Positions 8,035-63,771 are shown, counted from the stretch's first letter. The stretch is 64,000 bases of DNA from an uncultured archaeon (GCA_964484305.1 CAZAEI010000002.1:11715-75714); one strand, 5' to 3'. Program-made: numbers and translations. Notes: generated by a model from the letters alone, not told the origin.

Positions 8035-8058
8035 ATCAACACCTCCATATCCTTTCTA

Positions 8059-8076
8059 TCAGTCCCTGAAGGGACT
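8059..8076 (-). promoter_or_regulatory. GC-rich hairpin CAGTCCC-TTCA-GGGACTG (minus-strand reading) in the about 100-nt junction between the giant gene and the coiled-coil gene.
   Basis: A perfect 7-bp inverted repeat is read directly. It lies 13 nt upstream of the SD GGAGGTG of the 8034 start. The stem core GTCCC...GGGAC matches the hairpin family at 53.1, 58.8 and 63.2 kb. Confidence 0.5.
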
Positions 8077-8134
8077 GCGTGCACTCCAGTGCAACAGCTC
8101 CTTAACTTCCTGTTATGCAGCTTTGTCATCTGCA

Positions 8135-52712: not shown

Positions 52713-53129
52713 TTAATCTGGTTTGCCATCAGCGAGCTCGAACTTGATCCCGTACTGGATGAGCCCCGAGGAACCGTCCTCGTGAATCTTCCTGAAGACC
52801 GGTCTGACCCGCATATCTATATCCACATCGTCCGGATTGCCTATCACCTGGCCGGATATCCTGGTTCCCTCATCGAGCTCGATTATGGCCACTGCATAGG
52901 GCGTGTATTTCTCGAAGCCCTCCGGGGGGACCCTGATTACGGTGTATGAGATTATACTGCCGAGGCCTGAGAACCGGAATTCCCTGATATCGCCCCTGCG
53001 CCTGCATGCAGGACAGAAGTCCTTGGGTGGGAAGTACGCTGTGTTGCAGGTGTGGCACTTCGTTCCCGTAAGGGTGTACCTGCTCTTCTGGAGCCTCCAG
53101 TACAGGGGGACGCTTGACCTGTGAGTCAT
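52713..53129 (-). CDS. DUF35 Zn-ribbon/OB-fold protein, the scaffold of the archaeal thiolase/HMG-CoA synthase complex.
   Basis: CHTCNTAYFPPKDFCPACRRRG forms a Zn ribbon and is followed by an OB-fold-like C-terminus. SD AAGGTGA lies 5 nt upstream of ATG 53129. The ORF-track extension MHAVPKGRKVSD is a translation of the hairpin repeat. Confidence 0.85.
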   Translation of the reverse strand: MTHRSSVPLYWRLQKSRYTLTGTKCHTCNTAYFPPKDFCPACRRRGDIREFRFSGLGSIISYTVIRVPPEGFEKYTPYAVAIIELDEGTRISGQVIGNPDDVDIDMRVRPVFRKIHEDGSSGLIQYGIKFELADGKPD

Positions 53130-53134
53130 ATCAC

Positions 53135-53250
53135 TCACCTTCCGTCCCTTCGGGACGGCATGCACTCATTCACCTTCCGTCCCTTCGGGACGGCATGTAC
53201 TCATTCACCTTCCGTCTGGTTTCATCCTGTTAATGACGGCATGTAATCAT
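53135..53250 (-). repeat. Three tandem hairpin plus SD units (35, 35 and 46 nt) filling the junction between thiolase and DUF35.
   Basis: The minus-strand units read (ATGAGTRC)ATGCCGTCCC-GAA-GGGACGGAAGGTGA. The third unit keeps both flanks but has a longer loop (CCGTC-attaacaggatgaaacca-GACGG). Confidence 0.85.
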
Positions 53251-54429
53251 TTACCTCTTTAATTTGGCGTCAGGGTTGGCCAGTATGCTGACCACCGCTG
53301 TTGCGCCGCTTCCTCCTATATTGAGGGCAAGACCTATGTTGACGCCGCTGACCTGCATGGGACCGTAATTGCCACGGAGCTGCATGGTCAGGTCAGCCAG
53401 CTGCCTTATGCCCGTTGCCCCCACCGGGTGGCCCACTGACTTGAGGCCGCCGGTTGTGTTTGTGGGTATCTCACCGCCTCTGGCCATCCTGCCCTCCTCC
53501 ACAAACCTGCCTCCCTGACCCTTCTCGCAGAACCCAAGGTCCTCCAGTGCGATGATTTCGTTTATGGAGAAGCAGTCATGGACCTCGGCTATGTCAATGT
53601 CCTTGTGTCCCAGGCCGGTCTCCTGGTAGGCCTTCCTGGCAGCCACCCTGGTGGCATTGAGCTCGGTAAGGCTCGCGCGGTCGTGCAGGGCAAGGGCGTC
53701 AGTGGCCTGCTGCGTACTGAGAACCCATATAGGGTTTTCAAGCTTCCTGGCAACATCCTCTGATGCCAGTATGACTGCTGCTGCGCCGTCTGTTATGGGA
53801 GAGCAGTCCAGGAGGGTGAGGGGGTCTGATATCATCGGGGACTTGAGGACCTGGTCCACTGTTACATCGTACCTGAACTGGGCCCTCTCGTTCAGGACCC
53901 CGTTTTTGTGGTTGTTCACGCTGACCATGGCCATCTGCTCCCTGGTGGTTCCGTACCGGGCCATGTGGCGCCTCGCTATGAGGGCATATAGCCCTGTAAA
54001 GGTAAGGCCTATGCTGGACTCCCATTCCTGGTCGCCCGCGCCCATGAGGGTGGCTATGGCGTCTGTCCCCTTGAGGTCGGTCATCTTCTCTGCGCCGGCT
54101 GCCATGATTACGTCATGCCTGCCGCTCTCTATGGCAATGCAGGCGTTCTTGAACGCCAGGGCCCCTGAGGCGCAGGCTGCCTCGAACCTGGTGGCCGGGA
54201 TGGGGGTCAGCCCTGCATGGTCAGCTGCCAGGGCCCCCAAGTGCTCCTGGCCGATGAACCTGCCTGCAGACATGTTGCCCACATAGAGGGCCTGGATGTC
54301 CTTGCCGTCCAGTTTGGAGTCCGCGAGGGCAAAGGCCCCTGCCTCTGTGGAGAGGTCCCTCAGGGAGCGCTCCCACTGCTCCCCGAATTTTGTGTATCCC
54401 ACGCCAACGATGGCGACCCTTCTAGCCAT
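53251..54429 (-). CDS. Acetyl-CoA C-acetyltransferase (archaeal thiolase).
   Basis: MARRVAIVGVGYTKFGE, the catalytic Cys context EAACASGALAF, and a C-terminal GGLKSVGHPVGATG block. SD AGGTGAT lies 4 nt upstream of ATG 54429. Confidence 0.9.
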   Translation of the reverse strand: MARRVAIVGVGYTKFGEQWERSLRDLSTEAGAFALADSKLDGKDIQALYVGNMSAGRFIGQEHLGALAADHAGLTPIPATRFEAACASGALAFKNACIAIESGRHDVIMAAGAEKMTDLKGTDAIATLMGAGDQEWESSIGLTFTGLYALIARRHMARYGTTREQMAMVSVNNHKNGVLNERAQFRYDVTVDQVLKSPMISDPLTLLDCSPITDGAAAVILASEDVARKLENPIWVLSTQQATDALALHDRASLTELNATRVAARKAYQETGLGHKDIDIAEVHDCFSINEIIALEDLGFCEKGQGGRFVEEGRMARGGEIPTNTTGGLKSVGHPVGATGIRQLADLTMQLRGNYGPMQVSGVNIGLALNIGGSGATAVVSILANPDAKLKR

Positions 54430-58150: not shown

Positions 58151-58759
58151 CTAGATGCTGTCCGATTTCAGGATTCTCACAATCTCAAAGGCCTCGGCGT
58201 GGCTTACTGCGGGGCCGAGCCCCCTGAACTGGCTGAGGCCCCGGATGGCATTGATTTTCATGTAGTCCCGGCCGTTCTGGGTAGTGAACTTGTTGAGTAT
58301 TTCTATCTTCCTGTCTATATAGCTGCTGATGTCCACATAGTAGTTGGGATTGAAGTTCAGGTAGAGGCTCGGGGACTCGTAGGCGAATATCTCCGGGACG
58401 AACCTGGCCGCCGAGAGGGTCGCATAGGCCGCGTTCCGGTGGTCCTGGTGGGTGTCCCTGACAGAGTGGGTGTAGACCCTTCTTGGATTCAAATCCTTGA
58501 TGATGGCCTCGAGTTTTTCTATCAGTTCGTGGCTCTGGGGTACTGCGGTGTCAGGGAAATCAAACATTTGGAGCTTGGCCCCGATTTTTCTGGCAGACTC
58601 CCCGGCCTCCCTGGTCCTTACCTCAGGGTCGCCTCCCCTTTCGCCCCTGCTGAGGATTACAAAGGTTACCTCGTCCCCCCTCTTGATATGCCTCATGATT
58701 GTTCCGGTACATCCGAACTCTATGTCGTCCGGGTGTGCGCCTATTGCAATGATGTTCAT
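58151..58759 (-). CDS. PIG-L/LmbE-family N-acetylglucosaminyl deacetylase.
   Basis: The AIGAHPDDIEFG motif and HQDH. The hairpin plus SD unit lies directly upstream. Confidence 0.85.
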   Translation of the reverse strand: MNIIAIGAHPDDIEFGCTGTIMRHIKRGDEVTFVILSRGERGGDPEVRTREAGESARKIGAKLQMFDFPDTAVPQSHELIEKLEAIIKDLNPRRVYTHSVRDTHQDHRNAAYATLSAARFVPEIFAYESPSLYLNFNPNYYVDISSYIDRKIEILNKFTTQNGRDYMKINAIRGLSQFRGLGPAVSHAEAFEIVRILKSDSI

Positions 58760-58765
58760 ATAATA

Positions 58766-58797
58766 TCACCTTCCGTCCCTGCGGGACGGCATACACT
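58766..58797 (-). repeat. Single hairpin plus SD unit (ATGCCGTCCC-GCA-GGGACGGAAGGTGA) between the ATP-grasp and PIG-L genes.
   Basis: It matches the core of the units at 53.1 and 63.2 kb. The SD lies 6 nt upstream of ATG 58759. Confidence 0.85.
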
Positions 58798-58810
58798 CCA
58801 TCTCCCTCGT

Positions 58811-59743
58811 TTATTTCATTCTCATTATCCTGTTCTCAAAGACACCCTCTCTCCACTCGGTTTGTGGGATGCCCTTCCCTGAAAGCATGCTGTAGAGGAG
58901 CTCTGCTGTGTTGGCTCCGGCCTCTGCAGTTATGGGCAGCCCGCCAGAGAACCTGGGATTTATCTCCACCAGCTTCATCCTGCCCGAGGTGTCTGCCTTG
59001 AACTGCATGTTTGCGGGGCCTATGAACCTAAGAATGCTGCATAGCTTTTTAATCTTTTCCTCTATTTCAGGGTGCCTCTGGGTCTCCCCCCTGGTGCAGA
59101 TGCCATCCCTGACCTCGAGCCTCTTCCTGGGGACTGCCACAACCGGGTTGCCCTCGAGGTCGCAGAGCACGTCCGCTGTGTATTCCTGGCCCGGGAGGTG
59201 CTCGCAGAATACATTGTCCCTGTTTATCAGTTCCTGGGGTATTTCCATGTAATTCTGAAAAAGGCGGGTTCCCCTGCTCCCCCGGCCCCTCCTGGGCTTC
59301 ATGAAGACGGGCCCCGGGCCGAAGGCCGCAAGCCCCTGGCGGCTGTCGGTGACGACATACCTGGGGCAGAAGGGCTCGTCCCTGACACTCTCGTAGAGTA
59401 GGGCCTTGTCGTCGCAGGTCTTGACCGTCGTGTATGGAGAGACCACGATCCTGGCATTGAAGTGAGCGGGCCGGTAGGAGAATACCAGGAGCTCCTCGTC
59501 GACCGTGGGGATGAGCACGTCTATTCTCTCCCTCTTTATGATTTCGTTTACGGCGCGCTTGAACGCGTCATGGCTCCTGGCGTGCGGGACCGTATAGAAC
59601 CTGACCCCTGAATTACCTGTCCTGACCAGGTCCTCCCTTTTCCTGGGGTTGGAGTCGCAGGCAGCCACGACAGAGCCCCCCGGAAGGAGGCTCACCACAT
59701 TGATTCCCGCGGGCCCGCCAAGGCCTGTAACAAGTATCCTCAT
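58811..59743 (-). CDS. ATP-grasp family ligase (carbamoyl-phosphate-synthase-like ATP-grasp fold).
   Basis: MRILVTGLGGPAG..., FMKPRRGRGSRG, LPGQEYTADV and LVEINPRFSGG. SD AGGTGAT lies 3 nt upstream of ATG 59743 and overlaps the stop codon of the upstream gene. Confidence 0.75.
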   Translation of the reverse strand: MRILVTGLGGPAGINVVSLLPGGSVVAACDSNPRKREDLVRTGNSGVRFYTVPHARSHDAFKRAVNEIIKRERIDVLIPTVDEELLVFSYRPAHFNARIVVSPYTTVKTCDDKALLYESVRDEPFCPRYVVTDSRQGLAAFGPGPVFMKPRRGRGSRGTRLFQNYMEIPQELINRDNVFCEHLPGQEYTADVLCDLEGNPVVAVPRKRLEVRDGICTRGETQRHPEIEEKIKKLCSILRFIGPANMQFKADTSGRMKLVEINPRFSGGLPITAEAGANTAELLYSMLSGKGIPQTEWREGVFENRIMRMK

Positions 59744-59751
59744 TGTATCAC

Positions 59752-60756
59752 CTAACCAAAGAACCATATCAGCCCGAGGCACCAGAGAGCGTAGAGGCCT
59801 GAGATGAGGACGGTCACGTCGTTCTCATAGCAGCGGCCCCTGACCTTCCTTATGGCCCGCATGGCCACGTGGGTGAGGGACCATATCTGGCGGTAGGGCT
59901 CCCTCAGGCTGTTGTCCCTGGAGGGAATGCCGAAGCACTCGGGCTTGAATATCTCCTTGTTCTTATAGATGTAGTGGAGCTCCCTGGACTTGATTGCGCC
60001 CTCCAGGATGTACGGGGCCATGATTAGAACCGCTATGCTCTGGAAGTTTCCCATCACGGCAACCACTGCGAAGAGTGCCCCCACAAAATAGGTGAGTGTG
60101 TCCCCTGGAAAGACCCTTGAGGGGTAGCGGTTGAAACGCAGGAAGGCCAGGAGTCCGGCCGCTGCGACAAGAAGGATGGGGAAGAAGACAGTGCCTTGGG
60201 TGAACCACATGAGGGTGAGGATTCCCGTTATAGCGAGAAGGGTCTCGAGGCCGTTGAATCCACCAAGGAGGTTCACGGCATTGGTGGCCACGATAAAGCC
60301 TATGGGAACCATGACCAGGGGATAGAACAGCCAGGGCATGGCTATCTGGTGACCAAGGACAGAGACCGCAACCCTGTCCAGGAGAAAGGGTATGAGCGGG
60401 AGGACTGCCACGGCTGTTATAAGGGGTTTCTTCCACCTGACAAAGCCCCTCTTCCAGCCGCTGACATCGTCTGCGTAGGCTATCACTGTTATTATGGAAA
60501 GGGAGGTTATGGAGGCCGCTGTGACCAGGATTCGCTCCAGCTGGCATGCAGACCAGTAGCTGTTCAGAATCACAAGCATGCCCAGGAGGAAGGCCGAAAA
60601 GACCACGATTCCGCCTGTCTCGGCTACCTTGGGCTTCTCCCTCTTGTTCATGTCCCTGCCTACCAGGCCTGTCCTCGTGGCCCTCTCTATCCACTTGGGC
60701 GTCAGGATGAGGGTGGCTACAAAGGCCAGGATTCCGGCCAGAGCGAGCTCGTACAT
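59752..60756 (-). CDS. Polyprenyl/dolichyl-phosphate GlcNAc-1-phosphate transferase (GT4 MraY/WecA/AglH family), polytopic membrane protein.
   Basis: Multiple TM helices, and the motifs YADDVSG and NAVNLLGGFNGLE. The start is either ATG 60756 or GTG 60765. Confidence 0.8.
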   Translation of the reverse strand: MYELALAGILAFVATLILTPKWIERATRTGLVGRDMNKREKPKVAETGGIVVFSAFLLGMLVILNSYWSACQLERILVTAASITSLSIITVIAYADDVSGWKRGFVRWKKPLITAVAVLPLIPFLLDRVAVSVLGHQIAMPWLFYPLVMVPIGFIVATNAVNLLGGFNGLETLLAITGILTLMWFTQGTVFFPILLVAAAGLLAFLRFNRYPSRVFPGDTLTYFVGALFAVVAVMGNFQSIAVLIMAPYILEGAIKSRELHYIYKNKEIFKPECFGIPSRDNSLREPYRQIWSLTHVAMRAIRKVRGRCYENDVTVLISGLYALWCLGLIWFFG

Positions 60757-60765
60757 ACAAAACAC

Positions 60766-60855
60766 CGTAACTGAAGTGTATTGTTGTTAATTAATATATG
60801 TGTTAAGGGTTTGGTTAAGTATTTAAATGTCTACTAATAAGTAGCAAGTGATATC
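60766..60855. promoter_or_regulatory. Divergent AT-rich promoter gap.
   Basis: ttaattaatatat and gtatttaaatg are TATA-like boxes between divergent genes. Confidence 0.45.
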
Positions 60856-61869
60856 ATGTTTGAGACACTATCGCGCAGCCTCAACAAGGGCACCGAGCTG
60901 GCTGCATACTCATGGAAGGGGATGAGGGACCTGAAGCCCAAATCAGTAGAACTGCCCGTCATGAGCTGCTGGCTGAGACCAGAGGTCTATTATGATTACG
61001 TCAGGGGTAAGGGCAGGGGTGTATACAACCTTCCGCCTGTCCCTAAGGAGGCCTTCATCAAGGGCAAGAATTATGACAGGGAACTTGAAAGGGACTTTCT
61101 GAGGGCAGTTGAAAAGAAGTATGGTGATTTCAGAATGATTGATGATTTTAAGGGGCCTGAAGTAGATGATACGAATTATGACCTTGTTCTGGGAAACTTC
61201 GGTGTTATAGAGCAGCATGGCTTTCACCTGCCCCTGGATTCTGACAACATAAGGATATACGGCCTTATCGGAGAGTTTCTGGGGAAGGGGGCCGTCCGCA
61301 AATCCCTAGTGTGCCACCAGGCACCATCCCTCTCATATGGGGTCACAGGACCGTATGAGATGGATTTTCCAGGAACCATAAACACCGGGCCTGAGATTCT
61401 TGAGGGGATGTGTCGCAACTATGTCTCTGAGATATCTGGTTCCCTAGGGAATTCAGGTATTCTGTTCCTTACGGCATATGCACACCCTGACCACCTTGGT
61501 GTGATAGAAAGAGTGGTTTATGGTTTTAAGGAAGGGCACTCGATTGAGTTCAAGTTTGACTTCGGACTCCTTGACCCTGAAAGGTTCGAGGTAAGAGGCC
61601 ACGCAAGCAGGAACGAAACCTCTGTTATCATGTTTTACAGGCCAGGAATGGTTGATATGAGTCAGGCTGTGGGAGGGAAAGTTGATAGGGAGTATTTTAA
61701 TAAAAGGGGCTATGTGGAGGGAGCAGAACCTGTTGGTTCGGGTGTTGATGGGGACGATGATAACAGCCCCAGACTCTCAACACCAGAATTTGGGAAGGGA
61801 TATGTGGATGGCATGGTGGATGGGATTGGAAACATGTATCAGGAAATGTCGCTCGGATATGGTGACTAA
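60856..61869 (+). CDS. Creatininase-fold amidohydrolase-like protein with an N-terminal extension.
   Basis: GVIEQHGFHLPLDSDN resembles the EQHGPHLP..TD motif, and YGVTGPYEMDFPGTI resembles yG.s..h..fpGTi. The usual NGHGGN block is replaced by TAYAHPDH. Confidence 0.5.
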   Translation: MFETLSRSLNKGTELAAYSWKGMRDLKPKSVELPVMSCWLRPEVYYDYVRGKGRGVYNLPPVPKEAFIKGKNYDRELERDFLRAVEKKYGDFRMIDDFKGPEVDDTNYDLVLGNFGVIEQHGFHLPLDSDNIRIYGLIGEFLGKGAVRKSLVCHQAPSLSYGVTGPYEMDFPGTINTGPEILEGMCRNYVSEISGSLGNSGILFLTAYAHPDHLGVIERVVYGFKEGHSIEFKFDFGLLDPERFEVRGHASRNETSVIMFYRPGMVDMSQAVGGKVDREYFNKRGYVEGAEPVGSGVDGDDDNSPRLSTPEFGKGYVDGMVDGIGNMYQEMSLGYGD

Positions 61870-62489
61870 ATTCTCTTCAGGTCCTCCGCATAGTGAGCAT
61901 CTGAATTGGTTACCATGGTGGCGCCAAGTTTTTTGCACATATCTAGGAAACCGGGTGGGGTTCTGTATGTTTCTACAAGACTGTCCTCGATGAGAACCCT
62001 TCTCTTTTTGCACTCCTTTATGATGACCTGGAGTTCTGGGGGTGTGAGGCTCACGTTTCTCAGGAAGGTCTGGGGATGGCCCCAGATATCGACCCTGGGG
62101 TGCCTGAGTGCGCCGAGGAGGGCCTGGATGAAGTCCTCCCTGGGGCCTTGGGGGAAGTCATGGAAGCTGGCAATGATAATCTCGGCCTTGCCGAGGATTT
62201 CCCTGGAGACATCCAGGCTGCCTGAGCGGTCGAGTATCTTGGTCTCGCACCCTGCCAGGATTTTGAGCCCCGGGAAGAGCTGCCTGGCCTCAATGATGTC
62301 ATTGAGGAAGTCGTCGTAGTCATATGAGATTTCCATGCGAACGTGCTCTGAGAAGCATATTAGCTTGAGGCCGTTCCGGACGGCCTGCTCGCACATCTCC
62401 ATTACGGTGTTAGAGCCGTCCGTGTAACTGGTGTGGACATGGAAGTCCCCGGTTTCAAGGCAGGCCCTGTATCTTTCCCAGTTCTTCAT
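61866..62489 (-). CDS. PHP-domain metal-dependent phosphoesterase (histidinol-phosphatase family).
   Basis: GDFHVHTSYTDGSNTVMEMCEQA..., FSEHV and TNSDAH. SD GGAGAT lies 3 nt upstream of ATG 62489. Confidence 0.75.
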   Translation of the reverse strand: MKNWERYRACLETGDFHVHTSYTDGSNTVMEMCEQAVRNGLKLICFSEHVRMEISYDYDDFLNDIIEARQLFPGLKILAGCETKILDRSGSLDVSREILGKAEIIIASFHDFPQGPREDFIQALLGALRHPRVDIWGHPQTFLRNVSLTPPELQVIIKECKKRRVLIEDSLVETYRTPPGFLDMCKKLGATMVTNSDAHYAEDLKRI

Positions 62490-62522
62490 GGTATCTCCTT
62501 CCCGGCCCGGAAGGCCAGGCAA

Positions 62523-62630
62523 TATAACAAATTAATTTAATTAGTGGTTTTAATATGTAAACTATACTCATGTTCCGTCCAAGGAACGGATTTTGCGTAA
62601 AGAGTAAATATAATCAAGCAGGTGCAGGGT
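62523..62630. promoter_or_regulatory. Divergent AT-rich promoter gap containing a degenerate hairpin unit (62567-62594, CATGTTCCGTCCAAGGAACGGA).
   Basis: ttaatttaatt, ttttaatatg and taaatataatc are TATA-like boxes. The hairpin resembles the middle unit of the 63.2-kb array. Confidence 0.4.
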
Positions 62631-63149
62631 ATGGACGCAATGGAATGCATCAGGGGGAGGGCATCGGTGAGGGGCTTCCGGGGGGATGATATTACCGAAC
62701 TCCTAATGGATGAGATTCTCGAGGCAGCCGTGGCAGCTCCGTCTGCAAAGAACTGCCAGGACTGGGAGTTCATAGTTGTGAAGAATCCTGAGAATAGGCA
62801 GAGGCTCGCAGGGGCTGCCCTGGGCCAGGACATGATAGAGGAGGCCCCTGTTGTCGTGGTGGTGTGCTCGAACCTGAAGAAAAGCAGCAGGTGCGGAACG
62901 CGGGGGGAGACCCTCTATAGCATACAGGACACGGCGGCGGCCACCCAGAACCTCATGCTCGCGGCCTGGGACAAGGGAATAGGCTCGTGCTGGGTTGGGG
63001 CCTTTGATGAGGGAAGGGTCAGGCAGGTCCTTGTCCTTCCGGAGCACGTGAGGCCCCTGGCCATAGTCCCGCTGGGCTACCCCGCTGAAACCCCCAAGAA
63101 GCCCGAGAGGTGGCCCCTCAAGGACTTTGTCCACAGGGAGCACTTCTGA
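62631..63149 (+). CDS. Nitroreductase-family flavoprotein.
   Basis: RASVRGF, APSAKNCQDWEFIVV and PLGYPAE. AGGTG lies 6 nt upstream of ATG 62631. The ORF track begins at GTG 62622. Confidence 0.8.
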   Translation: MDAMECIRGRASVRGFRGDDITELLMDEILEAAVAAPSAKNCQDWEFIVVKNPENRQRLAGAALGQDMIEEAPVVVVVCSNLKKSSRCGTRGETLYSIQDTAAATQNLMLAAWDKGIGSCWVGAFDEGRVRQVLVLPEHVRPLAIVPLGYPAETPKKPERWPLKDFVHREHF

Positions 63150-63198
63150 ATGGTTTTAAGTTTGATGGTCAATTATTGTGAATATAAAGAGGGTTTGA

Positions 63199-63321
63199 AG
63201 GAGTGCATGCCGTCCCGCAGGGACGGAAGGTGATGGGGTGTATGCCGTTCCGATGCCCCTTGTGGCATAAGAGGAACGGAGGGTGAAGGAGTACATGCCG
63301 TCCCGCAGGGACGGAGGGTGA
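63199..63321 (+). repeat. Three tandem hairpin plus SD units (35, 53 and 35 nt) immediately upstream of the 63328 start.
   Basis: GTGCATGCCGTCCC-GCA-GGGACGGAAGGTGA; then TATGCCGTTCC-N21-GGAACGGAGGGTGA; then GTACATGCCGTCCC-GCA-GGGACGGAGGGTGA followed by tatgatATG. Confidence 0.85.
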
Positions 63322-63327
63322 TATGAT

Positions 63328-63771
63328 ATGTCAAGCACCATGAAGCCGGCAGCTGCCATAATCATACTGATAATCATGGTCCTCTCGGCAGTGGGGTTTG
63401 CCATGAACAGTGCCACCTTCCAGCAGGAGCCCCCGGCCCCGGAGATACCCACTGTCATCAGGGAGCCTATTAGCCCTGACCAGCAGATACAGATTCTGAG
63501 GAGCGGCAGGGTCCTTATAGAGCATTTCTATCAGGAGAACTGCACGGACTGCCTGGACAAGAACGCCCAGCTCGAGACCTTTGCGAGCAGGCTCGAGGGC
63601 TATGTCGTCGTGAACGAGGTCGTGGGGAACGAGAGCAGGCTGGATATTATCGGGGCCGGAGGGAGGATAACAGACCTGACAGGCAAGCCCCTGGATTACG
63701 AGGGCCTGCTGGACACCTTCTGCGAGGTTGCGATAGCTCAGCCCAGGGCCTGCATCATAAGGGAGTTCTAG
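63328..63771 (+). CDS. Membrane-anchored thioredoxin-like protein (CxxC).
   Basis: N-terminal TM AAAIIILIIMVLSAVGFA. HFYQENCTDCLDKN contains CTDC in a thioredoxin-like context. A strong SD is supplied by the last hairpin unit. Confidence 0.5.
   Translation: MSSTMKPAAAIIILIIMVLSAVGFAMNSATFQQEPPAPEIPTVIREPISPDQQIQILRSGRVLIEHFYQENCTDCLDKNAQLETFASRLEGYVVVNEVVGNESRLDIIGAGGRITDLTGKPLDYEGLLDTFCEVAIAQPRACIIREF

Follow-up and report, generated by a model that had tools for sequence, protein, structure and literature searches.

The genome of an uncultured archaeon carries a family of short hairpin repeats, most of which stand just ahead of genes and end in a Shine-Dalgarno (SD) motif. The family came to light in a 64,000-nucleotide (nt) stretch (GCA_964484305.1 CAZAEI010000002.1:11715-75714; hereafter the window), which is C2:11715-75714 of a parent assembly of 1.19 Mb and 58 contigs (C numbers denote contigs). 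The closest protein relatives of the window are metagenome-assembled genomes of Candidatus Aenigmatarchaeota (DPANN). We consider it probable that these units are a genus-specific miniature mobile repeat, akin to repetitive extragenic palindromic (REP) sequences and Rickettsia palindromic elements (RPEs), which enters 3' of SD-like motifs and ends in a new SD. An earlier note on the window had described a hairpin with an SD recurring at gene starts, and this recurrence is borne out. The sequence ATGCCGTCCCGMAGGGACGGARGGTGA occurs five times, exactly or with one mismatch (58766-58792, 53135-53161, and 53170-53196 on the minus strand; 63207-63233 and 63295-63321 on the plus strand), versus none in 100 shuffles, and the window searched with covariance model R2, filters off, gives five strong matches (E 1e-9 to 1e-13). 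These elements are not assembly artefacts, because the same sequences are found unchanged in 7-9 independent assemblies from other samples; a search for strain variants of the window loci returned identical copies only.

Two covariance models, R1 and R2, together recover at least 63 units at 48 loci in the parent assembly (G000), with 42 different stems. Units are about 35 nt long, or 48-51 nt in long-tailed forms. Each opens with a conserved, unpaired 5' box, (A/G)GAGT(A/G)C-NTG, followed by a hairpin that begins at an invariant C and has a stem of 6-8 base pairs (bp) and a loop of usually 3 nt; in the tag 5' of the stem, the T, the G, and the first stem C are invariant. After the hairpin come one A and then a purine-rich tail, of which there are at least three types: a short SD tail that sets the hairpin end 11-15 nt from the ATG (type I), a tail of about 30 nt reading NCCGTAAC...GGAAGGCGAAGGnTATG (type II), and one of about 41 nt that contains CCAATATAACCAAACAGGTG (type III). 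In the window, tails read A(A/G)GGTGA (AGGTGA-type), are complementary to the 16S 3' end (GGATCACCTCCTTA), and lie 5-6 nt ahead of the start codon, as expected if the tail supplies the SD of the gene, which the earlier note had proposed. Units at multi-unit loci always form head-to-tail arrays with a period of 35-51 nt and abut directly. Some units are nested within the loops of others, and near-identical units occur at unlinked loci.

The hairpin is maintained while its sequence changes. In a 25-sequence alignment, stem changes occur on both sides at six of the seven pairs, and pairing is present in 99% of cells versus 29-50% when the 3' partner is slid. As this alignment was drawn from hairpin-forming copies, a test using flanks only was also run: a perfect hairpin starts from the final C at 17 of 93 GTRCATGC boxes (18%), compared with 0.33% at a random C. 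The stem covariation that the earlier note had suggested looking for is therefore present, and by a test that is not circular. Among 37 loops of 3 nt, 22 are GAA and 26 in all are GNA. With C-G as the closing pair, GNA loops make the classic mini-hairpins of DNA, which are very stable.

The family appears, from the genomes searched, to be confined to one genus. We ran R2 across 91 genomes of the order, with 75 candidates scored per genome, so that counts are lower bounds: at least 48 matches in G000, at least 33 in a sister species (G002), at least two in G001, and none to three weak matches in other genera. All genomes compared are incomplete metagenome assemblies (74-90% complete). The flanks of the stem are species specific. 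Their consensus is GAGTRCATG..AAGGTGA in G000 and GGAGYGYATG..AAGGAAAG in G002 (full form CGCACNGGAGYGYATG-stem-GAA-stem-AAGGAAAG), where the tail pairs with another register of the same anti-SD. Species-specific flanks of this kind point to concerted turnover rather than conservation site by site.

Units come and go between close relatives. About 1.06 Mb of G002 was compared, giving about 27 orthologous junctions. Approximately 12 of these are empty in G002, for example C13:18362, C17:15993, C25:3440, and the junction ahead of the PIG-L gene of the window, which reads cactgaGGAAGATAACATG there and has no unit. At another 12 or so, both species have a unit, with unrelated stems and/or a different number of units; ahead of the gene for a protein of 147 amino acids (aa) in the window, for instance, G002 has only one hairpin, and a different one (AGCAGGC-agg-GCCTGCT-TAAAGGTGA). 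About 40 relatives show no insert at the thiolase-DUF35 junction. In the nearest relative, at 86% protein identity, the sequence is AAAGAGGTGA|TAATCATG; the corresponding stretch of the window is AAAGAGGTAA-[three units, each ending AAGGTGA]-GTGATATG. Furthermore, the array before the S4e gene has three units at C21:4741-4870 versus four in metagenome contig Ga0307421_1000021 (locus L171, 1010-1185), the sole contig obtained from a metagenome pattern scan. The flanks of these two arrays are 100% identical, and the extra sequence is exactly one 46-nt large-loop unit. These alignments show gain and loss of units at otherwise conserved sites, the kind of presence and absence at orthologous junctions that the earlier note had named as a sign of mobility. 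That note had also suggested local duplication within arrays. The difference of three versus four units between strains agrees with this, but variant units are of subfamilies that also have copies at unlinked loci, and the arrays are therefore mosaics and not simple duplicates.

Units also occur inside genes, in frame. A RecJ-like (DHH) gene on the minus strand of C11 contains a 48-nt unit (about C11:34595-34645) that adds 16 aa relative to G001 and G002. The filled site reads AGGGAG[CACATGCCGTCACGGAGTGACGG...GGCGGAA]GGAGCG, or by codon AGG GAG [CAC ATG CCG TCA CGG AGT GAC GGG ... GCG GAA] GGA GCG, and the unit is translated in frame as HMPSRSDGSVSNGEAE. In G001, the empty site reads GGCAAGGAG|GGTTCC (GGC AAG GAG|GGT TCC), and G002 is empty too. 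The second case is a small Toprim-domain protein (C4:57577-58188; L191), which has an in-frame unit directly after CTGAAGGTGA (CTG AAG GTG A) and is 14-18 aa longer than its orthologues in five other genera, all of which are without the insert. Their empty site is purine-rich and SD-like, for example AAAGAGGTGATAATC (AAA GAG GTG ATA ATC). The Toprim protein of G002 (G002:C34; L192) carries an in-frame insert of about 45 aa at the same site, made up of three decayed units with G002-type tails. A surface protein on C19 may hold a third in-gene unit but is too divergent to judge.

In six comparisons of empty with filled sites, the unit stands right after AAGGTGA, AAGGAG, or a similar motif, and it ends in such a motif as well. 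Where an empty site can be compared, the alignments thus show units evidently gained just 3' of an SD-like motif that was already there, in a fixed orientation on the sense strand, even within open reading frames (ORFs). Because there is no selection for supplying an SD inside an ORF, the SD-like motif would be the insertion target and not merely a site where insertions survive.

The orientation of units relative to genes is equally strict. With genes taken from crude ORF calls, a co-oriented ORF starts 3-80 nt after the unit at 40 of the 48 loci. Same-strand junctions hold 22 loci, and at all of them the units are sense-oriented, for which the chance under random orientation is 2^-22; the element does point with the gene that follows it, as first noticed in the window. 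A Pfam check was made on window genes, and names elsewhere were read from translations. The genes downstream are mostly housekeeping or translation genes, including those for ribosomal proteins L3, L4, L6, L31e, L44e, S3Ae, and S4e, EF-2, FtsY, MCM, RadA, Pelota, a tRNA synthetase, PFOR subunits, and HMG-CoA reductase.

Such a setting could equally suit a cis-acting RNA module selected by the host, and we regard this as a possible, if less probable, explanation. The hairpin 5' of the SD would serve as a leader or intercistronic stabiliser or as a translation insulator, guarding against 5'-3' exonucleases and leaving the SD single stranded; a genus-specific RNA-binding protein might read the module, which would have spread by duplication and gene conversion owing to its usefulness. 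The fixed position relative to start codons, the strict orientation, the pairing that survives many stem changes, and the enrichment for ribosomal proteins, EF-2, FtsY, MCM, RadA, and similar genes downstream are all in keeping with it, as is the tail, which stays free of pairing when single units are folded. In G000, G001, and G002, the sequences of the long-tail modules (NCCGTAAC..AAGGCGA and CCAATATAACCAAACAGGTG) are conserved, and about 12 of the roughly 27 junctions have a unit in both G000 and G002. However, orthologous genes of close relatives have a plain SD and no unit, and acting as a leader makes no sense for the two in-frame units within ORFs. Where both species have a unit at a junction, the stems differ entirely and the flanks are those typical of each species, which fits replacement better than conservation. 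The loops prefer GNA tri-loops, a signature of DNA mini-hairpins, and not GNRA or UNCG tetraloops. Rfam 15 gave no match in the window at the gathering score, and on seven other element loci (E ≤ 0.01) it found one tRNA only. The earlier note had counted relatives that lack the element but keep normal signals, together with random orientation, as evidence against its interpretation. Relatives without the element and with a plain SD are found at about half of the junctions, whereas orientation is not random, and that interpretation is, overall, partly supported. A hairpin immediately 5' of an unpaired SD may additionally stabilise or insulate the mRNA leader, which could be the reason that half of the junctions have retained a unit in the two species. 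A role at the RNA level cannot be the whole story, because there are empty orthologous sites and intragenic copies.

The box and tail of a unit also raise the idea of a translational-coupling relay. Each unit would be a mini-cistron, with an SD, 8 nt, an ATG, eight codons through the hairpin, and a TGA in the next SD; ribosomes translating it would unfold the hairpin and start again at the following unit or gene, on the principle of engineered bicistronic designs. In canonical 7/3/7 units, AAGGTGA does contain the stop of an encoded peptide such as MPSRRDGR*; ATG, GTG, or TTG is present in 53 of 57 boxes, and most boxes have an SD-like hexamer 8 nt upstream. Yet the frame of this mini-ORF, whose conservation the earlier note had proposed as a check, is not conserved: among 55 distinct units, a tail stop is found in 16 in the frame of the box, compared with 5 and 13 in the alternative frames, which is no clear excess. 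In nine units the stop lies within the hairpin, and in 30 the frame continues past the tail; the peptides show no conservation, four boxes have CTG, and 8-bp stems and large loops break the frame. The mini-ORF is a by-product of the commonest geometry and not a feature of the family, and a relay is very doubtful.

We give even less credence to operator-like DNA sites or cruciforms for a regulator of the downstream genes, or to a CRISPR-like repeat without spacers. Inverted repeats at gene starts would be expected of the former, and some G002 tails (ATTGAAAG, GTTGAAAG) recall the 3' handle of CRISPR repeats. However, the 42 stems differ wholly between copies, and therefore no sequence-specific dimeric regulator could read the units, which moreover occur within operons and within ORFs. 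A k-mer scan of G000 and G002 found no arrays with unique spacers; a CRISPR array was rejected on this ground and because units abut.

Several other candidates were considered and set aside. K-turn and bulge-helix-bulge motifs do not fit, as the required bulges and G.A pairs are missing by eye. IS608-style guide-target pairing of the box CATG with the tail GGTG was dismissed because G002 has the box but a different tail. The hairpins are followed by no T-run, which argues against terminators. A link with promoters was also discarded: TATA-like boxes lie anywhere from about 45 to 78 nt away from the unit, and a TATA is missing for units internal to operons, so that placement of the unit is not tied to the transcription start. 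Last, a MITE (a miniature transposable element with inverted repeats) of DDE type does not match, as the sole inverted repeat is the central hairpin and what repeats on either side is the SD motif, whose length varies (4-7 nt), where a target-site duplication would be of fixed length.

A mobile repeat is the explanation that these observations support best. On the sense strand and in one orientation, the unit would enter just 3' of an SD-like motif. Since a new SD stands at the end of each unit, the gene downstream would not lose its ribosome-binding site, and insertion at gene starts would thus be tolerated. Because each unit also recreates its own target, further units could be added head to tail, and target re-creation together with slippage would build mosaic arrays. 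GNA loops closed by C-G, combined with strand specificity, suggest that a folded single strand of DNA is recognised, perhaps as in REP/RAYT and IS200/IS605 elements. This model accounts for the co-orientation, the preserved spacing from SD to ATG, the head-to-tail mosaics, and the in-frame copies within genes.

The closest parallels are found among the REP, BIME, and REPIN families. In both cases, the repeats are short (20-40 nt), GC-rich hairpins with a conserved unpaired tag beside the stem; they occur in tens of copies per genome, cluster, form species-specific subfamilies, and differ in abundance between close relatives. REP elements are now and then found within genes, notably those of replication and repair (PMC3733652), and the intragenic copies here are in the RecJ-like and Toprim genes. 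There are also clear differences. The GTAG and CGTC repeat families have been reported in bacterial phyla only (PMC3733652), whereas the host here is a DPANN archaeon and the tag is GTRC-NTG instead of GTAG or CGTC. Units stand upstream of genes, unlike REPs, which are mainly downstream or between convergent genes. They are arranged head to tail only, the rare type of dimer in REPs, and inverted pairs of REPIN type are absent. Their tail is a functional-looking SD, and the single-copy RAYT gene flanked by repeats that defines a REPIN-RAYT system was not found here.

RPEs provide a second parallel. In a reduced genome, they have entered unrelated protein-coding genes in frame, where the extra peptide is tolerated (PMC10969869), much as the in-frame insertions here add 16 aa to the RecJ-like protein and 14-18 aa to the Toprim protein. 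However, RPEs are about 100-150 bp long, CGTC-tagged, and mostly intragenic, whereas our units are 35-51 nt long, carry GTRC-NTG, and are mostly at gene starts, with two or three inside genes. Stabilising 5' hairpins, STAB-SD leaders, and bicistronic designs likewise place a stable hairpin and/or an extra SD just ahead of the true ribosome-binding site, and the mini-ORF of the canonical subfamily ends inside the SD as in a bicistronic design. Those arrangements are single and locus specific, in contrast to a repeated, polymorphic family whose mini-ORF is not conserved. Our literature searches turned up no account of an element like this from DPANN archaea, although a failed search is not proof of absence.

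Our units may also be like the "peel and paste" (single-strand transposition) elements of the IS200/IS605 group, which insert in one orientation right behind a short specific motif without a target duplication of fixed length, depend on a folded hairpin in one DNA strand, and prefer stable DNA-type loops. Those elements differ in having distinct left and right ends, where each unit here has a single hairpin. Searches for a mobilising enzyme gave one match to PF01797 in G000 and none in G001, G002, or four other relatives (assemblies 74-90% complete). The G000 protein is an intact TnpA of 154 aa (C17:477-941, minus strand; L077) with its HUH motif as HCH; it scores 88.5 bits with the IS200 equivalog NF033573 and 20.8 with the RAYT model, against a cut-off of 80. 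G000 also has two TnpB-like genes, on C31 and C5 (L158, L162), of 371-399 aa. No RAYT was found in the genomes searched.

Several of these results, and some from the comparisons between species, weigh against a mobile repeat of REP type. The sole Y1 transposase in the sample of the genus is an ordinary IS200-type TnpA and not a RAYT. The ends of the resident TnpA (C17) and TnpB genes (C31, C5) are flanked by other hairpins, unlike the units, and G002 has at least 33 units yet no TnpA or TnpB match above the cut-off; on these two grounds we rejected a link between the family and the IS200 TnpA or TnpB. About half of the junctions, mostly at housekeeping or translation genes, hold a unit in both species, which fits a selected function too. 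The strain difference of three versus four units comes from short-read assemblies. Finally, the boundaries of a unit cannot be fixed to the base because an SD-like motif stands on both sides, and the choice of target therefore rests on the two in-ORF cases together with the gene-start cases.

The same evidence leaves room for a bolder proposal, which we think unlikely: a new kind of miniature mobile element that targets the ribosome-binding motif itself, through a single-strand or template-switch route and an enzyme unlike RAYT. It would integrate after AAGGTGA or AAGGAG on the sense strand, carrying a fresh SD, and the canonical form would also bring a start codon and a stop within the SD. 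With translation preserved, such an element could colonise the starts of essential, highly expressed genes in a minimal DPANN genome, and the host may use it as a modular leader that tunes expression.

Within the window, the members of the family can be placed precisely. A single unit (58765-58801, minus strand) lies between the stop of an ATP-grasp gene (58811-58813) and the start (58759) of a PIG-L family deacetylase gene (58154-58759, minus strand; Pfam). It consists of the box GGAGTGT-ATG (58801-58790), a stem of CCGTCCC (58789-58783) and GGGACGG (58779-58773) around a GCA loop (58782-58780), and the tail and SD AAGGTGA (58772-58766), followed by the 6-nt spacer tattat and the ATG of PIG-L. 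The minus strand of 58766-58792 reads ATGCCGTCCCGCAGGGACGGAAGGTGA, 6 nt ahead of that start. This unit, present just as the earlier note had it, scores 44.8 bits (E 1e-10) with R2 and is identical in nine other assemblies.

The three-unit array on the plus strand is likewise as previously described, up to its ending in AGGGTGA-tatgat-ATG. Unit 1 (63198-63234; 51.8 bits with R2) has the box GGAGTGC-ATG, a stem pairing 63210-63216 with 63220-63226 around GCA, and the tail AAGGTGA (63227-63233). Unit 2 (63235-63286) belongs to a nested-loop subfamily and has the box GGGGTGT-ATG, a stem of CCGTTCC (63245-63251) with GGAACGG (63273-63279), and the tail AGGGTGA (63280-63286); its 21-nt loop does fold into a small hairpin of its own (ATGCC..GGCAT), and a related copy lies at C18:8835-8878. 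Unit 3 (63286-63327; 50.9 bits), the same in seven other assemblies, has the box GGAGTAC-ATG, a stem pairing 63298-63304 with 63308-63314 around GCA, and the tail and SD AGGGTGA (63315-63321), after which come the spacer tatgat and the ATG (63328) of the 147-aa gene (63328-63771, plus strand). By prediction, the lowest-energy RNA fold of 63180-63345 pairs unit 1 with unit 3 (-61 kcal/mol, z -3.9), a long-range fold in place of three local hairpins that arises because both units share a self-complementary stem. The 147-aa protein has an N-terminal hydrophobic segment and a CTDC motif. Its earlier label of thioredoxin-like derives from the CxxC motif, and a Pfam search with this CxxC membrane protein gave no match.

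Upstream, the leader of a nitroreductase family gene (62631-63149, plus strand; Pfam) contains a decayed, long-tailed (type III) unit at 62567-62630, with the start codon at 62631. A degenerate copy had been noted here at 62567-62594; it is a true member of the family, although decayed, falls below detection by R2 (E > 5), and reaches to 62630. The unit has the box ACTCATG, the hairpin remnant TTCCGTC..GGAACGG, and then ATTTTGCGTAAAGAGTAAATATAATCAAGCAGGTG-cagggt-ATG. Its full length aligns with type III units at C33:9295, C11:33296, C4:22486, and C4:45544, sharing with these long-tailed members the box CATG, a decayed hairpin, ATTTTG..AATATAATCAAGCAGGTG, 6 nt, and the ATG.

The second three-unit array (53134-53251, minus strand) lies between the stop of a thiolase gene and the start, at 53129, of a DUF35 gene (zf-ChsH2/OB; both flanking genes and the ATP-grasp enzyme assigned by Pfam). 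It runs from a large-loop variant to two canonical GAA-loop units, and the variant recurs in the C21 array. The two variant units of the window have R2 E values of 0.05 and 0.28. Large-loop units with a conserved loop motif (TGCAnTGGATGAACAA / ..ACAGGATGAAAC..) form a subclass seen, for example, at C10:27360-27400, C3:59120, C27:7542, C11:35061, and 53205-53242 of the window, and a recurrent module, ACCAATATAAC, is found in loops, leaders, and type III tails. A further member of the family, absent from the earlier list, lies upstream of a minus-strand ORF at 8052-8089 (minus strand; ggagtgcacg-CAGTCCC-ttca-GGGACTG-atagaaaggatatggaggtgttgatATG; R2 E 0.004).

Two other observations concern the genome as a whole. 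Several units precede tRNA-like 5' ends (C20:4613 and C9:31884 among them) that were recognised by neither Aragorn nor Rfam. In the whole genome, Aragorn reports only 13 tRNA genes, most with long or oddly placed predicted introns, and the tRNA genes of this organism may be unusual. Separately, contigs of the window region in other assemblies (loci L178 and L190) start within arrays, and the repeats therefore break short-read assemblies.

This last property is of practical importance, as arrays that break short-read contigs, and spurious GTG or ATG starts that can mislead gene callers, affect DPANN metagenome-assembled genomes. The wider significance lies in where the repeat is found and what it carries. 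REP-type families in bacteria lie behind genes and are tied to RAYT, whereas here a comparable repeat family, in a reduced archaeal genome, stands in front of genes with no visible RAYT, regenerates a ribosome-binding site, and forms head-to-tail arrays. If SD targeting is true, this would be a clear case of selfish DNA persisting in a tiny genome because it replaces the very signal that it interrupts. The repeat would, in addition, naturally generate variation in translation-initiation regions and insert small peptides in frame.

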